A stretch of 14,166 bases of DNA. It comes from a virus. The DNA is taken from the UHGV virus genome UHGV-1666497. One strand, 5' to 3'. Made by a program: the position numbers. Each line of letters starts with the position of its first letter. Position 1 is the first letter of the stretch. Positions 6,001-12,000 of this stretch are shown here, in pieces.

Positions 6001-9000
6001 GATGGTATCCCTTATGTTCTGGTGTTACTGGGCGTGTGTACGGGGAGTAAGAGTGTTGAGCGTTATCTGCCGGAGGTGAAGACATTAACCCGCCTGGCTG
6101 GCGGACGCTGGGCCGAATTTCATACGGCAAGACGAGGATTTATCCGGCTGGGAAAACGTCTGGGCTTTGAGCGAATGCCGGATGATGAGGATGGCTTCAT
6201 GGTGTTCAGGATAGCAGTCTGACTGCCACTGTATTCATCATCGAGCGTAAACCAATTGCAATTCACATTCTGACCCTGCTCCGGCAGGGTTTTTTGTTAT
6301 CTGAGGAGCCATTATGGGCGGAAGTAAAGGTGGTGGTGATACCAAAGTAAAACCAACAGCAGCGCAAATAGCACAGGAAGAGGTGGCCTGGAAAGGGTGG
6401 CAGGATTACAAAAATATTCTCCGTCCGGCAGAAGATAACTTCATGAAAAAGGTCGATGACCTTAACAGTGAGCAGCAGTACGACAATATTGCTGGCACCA
6501 CAAATCTGGGGTATCAGAAACAGTTTGGCAAAGCACGGAAGGAGCTGGCGGGTAATCTTGCTCAGTCCGGTGTTGACCCGTCCAGTGGTCGCTTTAACGC
6601 GGTAATGAATGCGAACCAGAGTGATCAGGTAACCGGGCAGATTGACACAACCACACGGGGGCAGGTATCGCAGGCAGATAAGTATGTTGCCGGGCTACAG
6701 GATGTTGCGGCTCTCGGTTCCGGTCAGAAGGCAGATGCGTTACAGAGTTTTAACTCCCTGGCTGACAGCAGTCTGGCAAAAGCCAAATCGGATGCACAGG
6801 CGGCGTTTACGAAACAACAGGGGCGAGCTTCTCTTGTTGGCGCTGGTCTGGGAGCTGTAGGTGCGTACGCGATGCATAAGGCTGGCGGTAACGGAGGTGG
6901 TGGCGGCGCTAAAACGCCAGGCACCGGCGCTAATGCTATTCAGCATCAGGCTCAGAACTGGAGACTGTAATTATGGAGTATGGCAAATACGAAACTCTCG
7001 CAAGGGCTGGTTATTCAGGCGCAGCCCGCCCACAGGGTGACTGGCAGACATCCGCCGCGCTGACACGCCAGCAATACGACGACTGGCGAACCAGATATTT
7101 GCCCCGCGTGGCAAGGCTGGCTGACCTTGGTGAGAACAACAGCCTGATGAATGCACAGCTTGCCCGGGTAGGTGGCCTTGCCACTTCCAGTCTCCGTACA
7201 GCGCAGATGGCACAGGATAACCAGATGGCGAGATACGGGGTAAACCGTCCGGATAATCCCAACAGTAACACGCTGGGTTTACGTAATGCACTGGCAATTG
7301 CTGGCGCGAAAAATGGTATACGGGAAGCAGAGCAGGATCGCCAGATGAACATACTGACTGGTGCTTCTGCACCTGCAAGACAGCAACTGAGTGTTGGTGG
7401 ACAACTGGTGTCAGGGTAAGGGGAACGATATGGGATACGGTTTACTGGATATTGCGAATCAGTCACGTCGAGAGGCATTACAGGGAATAAGTGACGCCGA
7501 CAGGCGACGTGAAGAAATTGAGGCTGCTAACAAGCAGATGGCGGCGCAACAGAAAGCGCAGAACAAGCAGAATATCGGTACGGGCATTGGTACGGGGGCG
7601 GCTATGGGCGCTGCCGTTGGTGGTCTCCCCGGTGCGGCTATTGGTGCAGTCATCGGTGGCCTTGCTGGTTCTTTGTTTTAAGGAGTGGTGAATGAGCGGA
7701 TTTGCACAGGGGTTACTTGCCGGATTCAGCACCGTTGACCAGGCCATGACCCGTCGTAAGGAGCTTGGTCTGCGTGAAGCACAGCTTGCTCAACAACAGA
7801 AAAATAACGAGCGCGATTTTGAATTTGCGCAGTCGCAGTTTGAGCATCGAAAGGAAAATGATCAGCGTACATATGATCTTAATGTCAAAAATGCCGATCG
7901 TGAATATGCGCTGAAAGAGAGGGAACACGCCGCAGCGCAGAATTACCGGAATGCGTCACTTGGCATTTCTCAGCAGAGGCTGCAACTGGAAAAATACAAC
8001 CAGCGACGGCTTGAGTATAACGATATGATTGCCCACAGCCAGCCATTAATGACAGCGCTTGGAAAAGCAATTGATGCTGGCGATCAGGAGGCTGCAATGC
8101 GTATTTACGGGCAGTTACCAAAGGGACATCCATTAACTCTTATGTCAAGTGAAGGCTATGCAGCGAAAGCGGGTCAGGCCGTGAACAACCTGCAAAAAAT
8201 CTTTGATGACAAGCCGGACAGGGCGATCGCTTCACTCAATACCCCGGAAAGTCTTGATGCGCTTTCTGGTGTGTTTGCCCCGGAACTGCAACAGCGTATT
8301 GGCATGCCCGATTCAACCGGGAAAAAGACGATAAAAGAGGCCAGGATTGGCAGTATCGTACCGGCGCAGCAGGAAGGGTACGTACTTATTGGCCTTGATC
8401 TCACATACAGCGATGGCTCCACCGCGCATAAACCTGTAACAGAATACGGCAGTGCACATCCTGATGATCAAACCGTGCTGGCGGTGCCTGTTGATAAGGC
8501 TGTTGAGCTTGTCAGGGATCGCAGTAAATTCGCGGAAATTTCGAAAAATTTCGGTTATTTCACGCCGAAGCAGGAGGGGCTTTCTCTGAAAGATATTCAG
8601 AAAGAAGCCAGCCAGGTAGCAGCGGAAGCGATCAAGAACGGCGGTAATGCTCAGGCTGCGAGGGATGAATTTTTAGCTGCGCATGGTTTACCGGAATATC
8701 AGCAGAAAATTCAGCAACAGAAATTTGAACAGCTTTTACAGAAGGGGCAGACCTGGGCGGAGGGCGATCCGGTCAAACTGGAGTTTGTCAAAGCGACTGC
8801 CGCCAATATGCCAGCCTTGCTGGAACCGGGGCGTGAAAAGGAACTGGAAATTTGGTACCAGAATCACCTCCGGGATAAAAAAGCCGAACAGGAAAAAGCG
8901 AAGAATTATAGCGCTGCTGCATCAGCCGAAGAGATCAGAGGCTGGATGAAGTAAAGTTACGCGGCAGTAACGCGCTCCCCGTTAATATCGTTCACTTACG

Positions 9001-12000
9001 CCCGACCATCGTGTCGGGCTTTTTTTTACTGGAGTCTGTATGGCTTTTTCAGATGAGCAGCGCCCTGAAGCGCAATTGGGTAACCAGAACCGCAGCAGCC
9101 TGAACATTAAGCAGCCGGGAGAAAATTACTGGCAGGATTTTTTCAGCAACCCGCAGAATGCCATTGATCACAGCACATCGTTCAGCCTCGGTGATGTATT
9201 GCCAACAATGGGTAAAGGTTTCGCCCAGTCCGTCCGGGGAACAGGGGAGATGGTCCGTGGACTCGGTGATGGATTTGTAAATAATCCTGTAAAAACGCTT
9301 GCCGGGTTGTCGTCTTTCATGACGGATGTTTACATGCCGCCTTCCTCCACGCAAAAGGAACTGGGCGCGCCACCTTCTGTTGGAGATGCGATTAAAAACA
9401 TTCCCGATGGAACAGGTAAAAACGCGGTCACTGATACTGTCGGTGAAGGTCTGAAAGCAACCGGTAAGGCAGTCAGTGATGGTGCCAAAGCCTCGGATGA
9501 ATGGCTGACAGATCAGATGTCGCCGGGTGCTGTTCGTGCGCTGAACACGCCAATGAGTGAAGGCTATGATGATTCTGCGGTCTTGCTGACGAAGGGTGTA
9601 AACCTGATTGGTGCGCTTGTACCTGATCTGGTTGCTGGCGGTGTGGTTAGAAAGGTGGGACAGGTCGCACTGAAAAGAACGCTGACCGCCGGGCTGGAGA
9701 AAAAATACATCGCGGCAGGAGTGCAGCCGGAAAGAGCCACGGCACTGGCAGCAGAAGCTGTCGATAAAAAAATGACGGATTTCTTCCATGCGGGCCTGAT
9801 CACCCATTCCACAGCCAGTGCACAGGGGCAGAGTGCAATGTCGGCAGCAGATGCTGTTCTTAATGCGGATTACGCTGAGCTGGCGCAGTCACCGAAATTT
9901 CAGCAGACGTTTTTGTCAATTGATGCAGATCCACAGCACGCACAGCTTACTGATCGCCAGAAAATGGACCTGGCAAAAGAGCGTGTTGCCGATGAGGTGC
10001 GCGCGCAGCTGGCAACCGATCCTGAATTGCTGGCTGTGAATGCCATGGCGGCAAAACTGGGTGACGCACAACTGTTTAATCTGGTGACACGAGGCACAGC
10101 GAAGACCGTTAAAAGCGGCATTGTCAGAAATGCCACGGAACAGGGCGTAATTAACGGGGCACAGAACGCCTATTCGCGCTATCAGGAAAACACGGCATTG
10201 CGTGAGACCGCCGGAATGGATGTGTCACCGTGGGAGGGCGTGGCTGACGCAACGATCGAAGGTGCAGCCTTTGGTGCTGCGATGGGGGCTCCATTCGGTG
10301 CGGTTGCCGGATATCGTGGCAGACGTCAGGCCGCAGAAGAAGCAGCCATGCGTGATGCTGAAACCGTGCAGCAGGACGACGCAGCCCCGCAACCCGAACC
10401 GGTTGATCCGGTGGCACAGCATCGTGAATCCATGCAGGGCATGAATCGCGAGCAGCTTCTGGAACAGTATGCTGATGCGGATATGGCAACAGAGGGTGAC
10501 GCATCCGCAGCTCATCGCCGGGAAGCTGCCAGCCAGTTGTTGAATGAACTGGACGAACAGGCGAAGCGACAGGCTGTGATGAATGAGCTGAAGGCGAAGC
10601 CGCGTTCTGAACTGCTTGAGGAATACCGCAGACTCAGCCAGAAAGAGGAGCGCACCGAGACTGAAGAACAACAGTTTCAGGCAATACGAGAAGTCATTCG
10701 CCCACAACAGGAAGTGACGCCGGAGGCACAGCCACAACCAGAGAGTGTGGATGATGGTAACGGGAGCATTTACCCGACGGTGCGCTTCCGGGACCCGAAT
10801 GAAGTCCGCATTGAAATTAACGGGAATGGTGCGTCCAGACCAGCGGAACGCATTGAAAAGGTGCGCCCGGATAACCGTTATTTCACGGATGAGAAAACTG
10901 CCATGGGGAGTGATGTTTTCCGTAATGCCGCCGCCACCGGCCTGAAACCGTCCGTAGTGAAGAAAGGCGAGAATCAGTATGCCGTTGAAATGGATAATCC
11001 TGCGTTCTCTGAAGATGTGGCAACGGAAACCATTAACACCCTGGCTGACGGAGAGCGTATTGCTGATGCTGACCCGATGGAACAGCCCGCGTTCATGCGT
11101 GACCCGCGATTCCGTGGTTTTACGGGGGATGATACAGAAGTGCAGGCCCGTCTTGCCCGTGGCAACGCGCCGACGGCGGAAGAACTGGTGCGTTTCCAGA
11201 TGGCTGAAGGTGATGCCGGTCCGACAGCACAGGAGTTAACTGAGCGTCCACGCCTTCCCGCTCCCGGCGATATTCATCCCGGACAGGGATATCCGTTACC
11301 GGGAGAAGTGGCGCGTACGCCGGATGAAAATCAGGCCGGACGTGGTGGTCGTTTTACCACAACCGGTGAGGTGAAGGGCCAGAGTTTCCAGAAAGGACGT
11401 GCGCAGGCTCCGGAAAATGCCGCTGGTCGCCAGGGGGAAATACTGGAGGGCGAATCGGTTCGTCGTGGTCTGCCGTCACCGGATGAGCAGAACGCCACAG
11501 CACCAGTGCGTGAAGGACTTCCTGCACCTGAACAGCGTGGGGTTGATATGCCACATCCTGAATCACTCCCTCGTATGGTTCGTGACTCTCTTCCGGAACT
11601 GGCACAGCAGGCAGAAGCACGCAGACAGACCGGGGATAATCGCCAGACCATAACCGATGTTCCGGATACTGAGGTGCCGGTGCCGGTAGATAAACCGAGC
11701 ACTCACCAGCAGGCGCGTGGTGCAAAAATTGAAGACTTTGGTGAGGAGATTAAGGGCGCGGCAAAACACCGTTATGCACAGCTTGCCGAAACACTGGGTA
11801 AAACGCTGGAAGACAGGGATTATTTCACGCAGCCGCTGAGCAAAGTGTTCCCGAAACCGGACTATGCAAAACTGGCGAACGAAGGGGCCGACGCTGACAC
11901 ACTGGCAATGATTGCGCTGTACCGCAGTGATATTCCCGCGAAAACGAAACTCAATGCGGTGAAGTGGGTGGAGAGTGTAAAGAGCATCCGCACAAGCGTG

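Follow-up and report, generated by a model that had tools for sequence, protein, structure and literature searches.

In lambda and the lambdoid phages, the late genes form one long co-directional unit downstream of the antiterminator gene Q; this unit is silent in the lysogen, and its internal intrinsic terminators are ignored once the polymerase has been modified by Q. In phage T7, the terminator T-phi follows the major capsid gene 10, and the T7 polymerase reads through it partially, with no antiterminator involved. Q antitermination has been summarized for Shiga toxin (Stx) phages by Sy et al. 2020 (PMC7547250), a study that also made Term-seq data public for E. coli O157 strain Sakai. Lom and bor are examples of lambdoid morons, which, according to Juhala et al. 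2000 as cited in PMC4104026, are insertions into the late operon that carry a promoter, a gene, and a terminator. Here, we analyzed a stretch of 14,166 nucleotides, virus genome UHGV-1666497 (all of it hereafter called the window), in which two hairpin-plus-T-tract elements, sites 1 and 2, lie directly before ATG 6314 and ATG 9040, the start codons of the homologues of ORF76 and of the giant gene ORF80 of phage Sp5. The window is the right end of a lambdoid prophage of the 933W/Sp5 type (Shiga-toxin-type, short-tailed, Sepvirinae). Very likely, both elements are genuine Rho-independent terminators in one long late operon that are overridden by Q-modified polymerase on induction.

The design is that of an ordinary lambdoid late operon, with which the locus shares a co-directional late unit downstream of Q and internal intrinsic terminators. 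It differs from the late operon of lambda in that the virion module is of the podovirus type (Sp5/933W; about 40 kb) and in that Q, as the agent of read-through at sites 1 and 2, is a role we infer from lambdoid phages. As with morons, terminators are found within a late operon, and just upstream stands lom with a terminator of its own (5414-5434); unlike morons, ORF76-80 lack their own promoter, rise together with the late genes on induction, and count essential tail genes among them. The locus resembles T-phi in having a hairpin directly after an abundant structural gene and in requiring read-through into downstream structural genes, the difference being that T7 relies on a polymerase of its own that reads through partially, with no antiterminator.

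Anatomy of the two terminators

6272-6298, + strand: site 1 intrinsic terminator (8-bp stem, tetraloop, TTTTTTGTT)
6303-6316, + strand: Shine-Dalgarno sequence GAGGAG (6303-6308) and ATG 6314 of the ORF76 homologue, read directly from the sequence
9000-9027, + strand: site 2 intrinsic terminator (7-bp stem with 6 G-C pairs, 6-nt loop, T8)
9031-9042, + strand: Shine-Dalgarno sequence GGAG (9031-9034) and ATG 9040 of the giant gene, read directly from the sequence

A preliminary description of the window had placed canonical hairpin-plus-T-tract terminators before both start codons, and their anatomy, their fold z-scores, and a strict terminator scan bear this out. At site 1, the stem GACCCTGC/GCAGGGTT (6272-6291) encloses the tetraloop TCCG and is followed by TTTTTTGTT (T6GTT), and at site 2, the stem GCCCGAC/GTCGGGC (9000-9019) is followed by T8 at 9020-9027 (TTTTTTTT). 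Both hairpins are intergenic and on the coding strand, beginning 50 nt past the upstream stop codon 6222 and 46 nt past the upstream stop codon 8954, respectively. The distance from the end of the stem to the ATG is 23 nt at site 1 and 21 nt at site 2; counted from the last T of the unbroken run, it is 18 and 12 nt, close to the gaps of about 17 and 13 nt given earlier. The Shine-Dalgarno sequences, which had been placed in or next to the T-tracts, lie next to them and not inside. Folding energies range from -14.5 to -16.0 kcal/mol at site 1 and from -12.4 to -13.8 kcal/mol at site 2; in a 36-nt frame, the values are -16.0 kcal/mol (z-score -4.35) and -13.8 kcal/mol (z-score -4.86), and at neither site did any of 200 shuffles fold as well.

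These figures bear on the simplest alternative, namely that the hairpins are functionless chance inverted repeats. A loose terminator scan of the whole window would agree with it, the 20 sites found being not above chance (13.6 ± 3.3 expected), but the strict scan, which demanded both a T-tract and a compact hairpin at -10 kcal/mol or lower, returned five + strand sites, compared with 0.43 ± 0.63 expected from 40 dinucleotide-preserving shuffles. Together with the z-scores, the intergenic, coding-strand placement and the conservation described in the next section (pairing kept with compensatory change, site 2 preserved amid a divergent stretch, and a terminator at the same position in a Vibrio relative) make chance an extremely improbable origin.

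The start of the giant gene differs between database records. In the older VT2-Sakai record (position 5797), the gene begins at an ATG within the terminator hairpin, 13 codons before the start that other records use. In the window, this upstream codon is ACG, which favours the downstream ATG and its GGAG as the real start. A long-range helix between CUCC (8975-8978) and the site 2 Shine-Dalgarno sequence, seen in the minimum-energy fold, was dropped because shuffled sequences fold as well as the 88 nt that hold it (z -0.89) and because Sakai-type phages have not kept the partner sequence.

The papers and GenBank records consulted do not describe these two internal terminators, and Rfam gave no family at site 1 or site 2, its only relevant match being a sub-threshold sok. 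Small RNAs (sRNAs) derived from 3'-UTRs were also considered at the sites; part of the table of Hfq-bound orphan sRNAs of strain Sakai holds no entry at approximately 1.293-1.297 Mb, the estimated coordinates, which is a weak negative. The sRNAs Pas, AsxR, and StxS were rejected as candidates, being located near Q and stx, outside this region.

Conservation among Stx phages and in a Vibrio phage

Escherichia phage PhiR12_3 matches the window at 98% identity, and ArgO145 at about 92% over 5400-9200. In an alignment of ArgO145, VT2-Sakai, P27, Shigella 75/02, phage 86, and IMG/VR variants, both terminators are conserved across the short-tailed Stx phages, and 933W carries both in the same places. 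The stem of site 1 is unchanged in all homologous variants, with variation in the loop and flanks, so that its pairs are uninformative on covariation. The stem of site 2 has three variants (GCCCGAC/GTCGGGC, GCCCGGC/GCCGGGT, and ACCCGGT/GCCGGGT), with 100% of cells paired and two pairs changed on both sides in a compensatory manner. The start-codon region of site 2, TGGAGTCTGTATGGC, is invariant in all relatives. The 100 nt that hold the site 2 hairpin, Shine-Dalgarno sequence, and start codon are 80% identical to Sakai, compared with only 37-68% in the 300 nt on either side, making site 2 a conserved island amid a divergent stretch.

Two sets of matches were set aside in these comparisons. A 15-mer anchor from site 2 also matched phages of an unrelated group, within a 1528-aa ORF on the minus strand, and these matches were discarded as due to chance; a search of genome contigs with ORF79 gave a sole match, a 552-bp contig labelled Xanthomonas that is probably contamination. 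One IMG/VR contig carries a deletion that fuses the spacer after ORF75 to codons within ORF77, removing the site 1 terminator and ORF76; this natural loss fits ORF76 being non-essential.

The module order is also kept in the distant Vibrio phage D60, where an ORF75-like gene (E 3e-7) and an ORF76-like gene (E 3e-17) are followed by two small genes, an HNH gene, an ORF79-like gene, and a collinear giant gene (E 3e-27 and 4e-23). The HNH endonuclease gene (7539-8330) lies on the opposite strand, inserted in the conserved ORF75-80-like module. The only strict + strand terminator in the 18.3-kb locus of D60 stands between the ORF79-like gene and the giant gene; the position of site 2 is therefore old or recurrent. 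In D60, just 7 nt and no terminator separate the ORF75-like from the ORF76-like gene, and site 1 is specific to the Stx phages, in which lom and hok/sok have been inserted just upstream of ORF75. The same adjacency indicates that ORF75 is part of the conserved module, and on this ground we revised an initial view in which site 1 terminated a moron made up of hok and ORF75.

The late operon downstream of Q

We assembled the full PhiR12_3 genome and scanned its late region, which comprises 41 kb downstream of a Q-like gene. The Q-like antiterminator gene (20537-20962; phrog_79, E 4e-46) lies upstream on the same strand, and 933W also has Q. From 20963 to 61861, the annotated genes of PhiR12_3 are on the + strand except two small ones, and in the window, every real gene is on the + strand. 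The late region contains 13 strict + strand terminators, 11 of them in the 9% of the region that is intergenic. Four have a stem ending 20-23 nt before an ATG: sites 1 and 2, a terminator immediately behind the major head gene (phrog_334), and another behind the virion structural gene that comes next. A terminator set against a start codon is, therefore, a recurrent feature of the late operon, the head-gene core included.

The preliminary description had offered two ways in which genes so placed could be expressed, read-through by antitermination or a compact promoter for each unit. The former gains support from the homology to Sp5 ORF76-80, the Q-like gene of PhiR12_3, and the induction of 933W and phi24B described later. 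The latter finds none in the spacers: neither terminator-to-gene spacer contains a sigma-70 match of at least 9/12, and the best candidates, at 7-8 of 12, are poorly spaced and lack the A expected as second base of the -10 hexamer. The T-run ends only 12-18 nt before the ATG, and no promoter fits between terminator and start codon at either site. ORF76-80 thus lack the upstream promoter of a moron.

An unusual promoter could still overlap each terminator and make ORF76-79 and ORF80 independent units or morons expressed in the lysogen. Vibrio phage D60 lends this idea some credit, as a 9/12 sigma-70-like match follows the equivalent terminator and precedes the giant gene, indicating that a terminator-then-promoter design exists in the wider family. 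Apart from the narrow spacers and poor matches of the window, the genes are induced with the late genes and not constitutive, and ORF79 and ORF80 are essential structural genes, so that we regard such a promoter as highly improbable.

Expression and function of the module in related phages

The window genes correspond to Sp5 ORF70-80 (ECs1232-1242), assigned by order and length. Those flanking the two terminators are as follows:

5821-6222, + strand: Sp5 ORF75 homologue, 133 aa, upstream of site 1 (phrog_610; length as in Sp5 Table S1)
6314-6970, + strand: Sp5 ORF76 homologue, 218 aa (phrog 611; length as in Sp5)
6973-7419, + strand: Sp5 ORF77 homologue, 148 aa (phrog 596; length as in Sp5)
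7430-7681, + strand: Sp5 ORF78 homologue, 83-96 aa (phrog 594; length as in Sp5)
7692-8954, + strand: Sp5 ORF79 homologue, 420 aa (phrog 601; length as in Sp5)
9040-14079, + strand: giant LPD5/LPD38-type protein gene, first 1680 codons, homologue of Sp5 ORF80 (2793 aa) (phrog_616 positions 1-1690 of 2793; annotations in relatives)

In-frame deletion of ORF79 or ORF80 in Sp5 abolished plaques and lysogenization and led to loss of the tail fibre with DNA packaging intact, and deletion of ORF76 strongly lowered infectivity (PMC5155283). The phenotypes of the ORF79 and ORF80 deletions imply that both genes are needed for tail formation.

A comparison of the lysogen with the induced state, as proposed in the preliminary description, is available from published RNA-seq of 933W in EDL933, the locus tags of which we mapped onto the ORFs. 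Two hours after ciprofloxacin, ORF75 was up 11.2-fold, ORF76 27-fold, ORF77 30.3-fold, ORF78 20.4-fold, ORF79 17.2-fold, and ORF80 20-fold; other late genes, head and tail genes included, were up 17- to 45-fold, lom and bor were not differentially expressed, and the ORF80 protein was up 52-fold at 12 h (PMC11125564 Table S1). ORF75-80 as a whole thus rose 11- to 30-fold, with no drop across site 1 or site 2. In phi24B, quantitative PCR showed the 8-kb giant gene to be up after norfloxacin and lom to be equal in lysogen and induced cells (PMC3342100), the latter result being later backed by RNA-seq (PMC4651098). Morons would be dispensable and expressed in the lysogen independently of induction; ORF76-80 are induced 17- to 30-fold in 933W, and ORF79 and ORF80 are essential in Sp5.

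By these data, the module ORF75-80 is a late virion function and not a set of morons. Terminators alone cannot tell late genes from lysogen-expressed morons, as the same layout follows the major head gene; it is the published genetics and RNA-seq that decide for a late virion function.

A hairpin after an abundant structural gene often stabilizes that message. Instead of Q-gated stops, the hairpins could be leaky attenuators that ordinary polymerase gets past at a useful rate, or RNA-stability elements that mainly protect the 3' ends of processed late mRNA and thereby set the ratio of upstream to downstream products. That the major head gene is followed by a terminator laid out in this way speaks for such a role, as does the lower induction of ORF75 (11.2-fold) than of ORF76 (27-fold), which could reflect a different basal level or stability on either side of site 1. 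However, strong stems and long U-tracts (T8 at site 2) are marks of efficient terminators, and the fold changes do not fall across either site. A role of this kind is also compatible with, rather than opposed to, Q read-through; as a replacement for it we find it unlikely, and a message-stability role alongside Q-gated termination is possible.

Proposed mechanism

In the lysogen, polymerase without Q would stop at these hairpins whenever transcription enters from upstream, for example from the constitutive lom and hok/sok units, and ORF76-79 and the giant ORF80 would be kept silent behind the terminators; the hairpins would thus insulate the downstream genes. Site 1 in particular may stop lysogenic transcripts from the lom and hok/sok insertions, and the lower induction of ORF75 would fit basal transcription that reaches ORF75 and ends at site 1. 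Upon induction, polymerase modified by Q at the late promoter is predicted to become terminator-resistant and to pass sites 1 and 2 along with roughly nine further intergenic terminators in the late region, and the downstream genes would then be translated from the Shine-Dalgarno sites right after the U-tracts.

Several points weigh against read-through by Q-modified polymerase as the explanation. The window itself holds neither Q nor a late promoter. Support comes from sequence and from published induction ratios, and these fold changes include phage DNA replication and show late co-induction, not Q-dependence. The invariant pairs of site 1 say nothing either way on structure, and the covariation of site 2 comes from only three lineages. 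Finally, the giant gene is broken by IS100, and the system may no longer be working in this strain.

Q-dependent read-through would place ORF75-80 of the 933W/Sp5-type Stx phages in the late, Q-dependent virion programme, which has little import beyond annotation; the sites might serve to probe the reach of Q-modified polymerase in a medically important phage. A small addition is the terminator that precedes the giant gene in a distant Vibrio phage as well. It is conceivable, although we consider it rather doubtful, that the terminator before the giant virion gene, which has the same position in the E. coli Stx phages and in D60, is a conserved checkpoint rather than an incidental stop and that loss of the promoter behind it in the Stx phages has made the 2793-aa protein strictly Q-dependent. 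If true, the checkpoint would act as a safety lock keeping a costly or harmful giant protein out of the lysogen.

Other features of the window

The similarity of the giant gene stops at 14079, and the final 87 nt (14080-14166) are the end of an IS100 (IS21-family) element. As the giant gene is essential in Sp5 and is here interrupted by IS100, the prophage is probably defective and probably lacks the capacity for infectious particles. Upstream of the module, the window contains the following:

687-2390, + strand: internal virion protein gene
2387-3655, + strand: tail fibre/tip protein gene, followed by two small genes
4654-5391, + strand: lom, Lom/Ail outer-membrane protein
5414-5440, + strand: intrinsic terminator after lom (hairpin 5414-5434 plus T-tract), starting 23 nt past the lom stop 5391
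5475-5796: hok/sok-type toxin-antitoxin cassette between lom and ORF75

Within the hok/sok-type cassette, the sok match in Rfam (5475-5635) scores 42 bits, under the gathering score, the hok reading frame spans 5625-5765, and a strong hairpin lies at 5773-5796. A terminator-like hairpin at 5923-5948 (-15.2 kcal/mol, followed by TTTTGCTTTG) is situated within the ORF75 coding sequence, about 160 nt past the hok stop, and might be the end of the hok mRNA. In PhiR12_3, downstream of Q (20959-21167 and 25474-25690), a 10/12 promoter match is followed by a second sok/hok-type locus (118 bits), after which comes a full STnc100 sRNA (149 bits) whose 3' end is a late-region terminator.

A strong minus-strand terminator at 590-608 (GGGGAGCATGTTGCTCCCC then T7) lies just upstream of the ORF70 homologue, and we saw no convincing minus-strand gene ending there. 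Three mosaic patches (4598-5400, 8698-8998, and 9100-9400), covering the lom allele, the 3' end of ORF79, and giant-gene codons ~20-120, are only 37-77% identical to VT2-Sakai, compared with 90-100% in the adjoining DNA.

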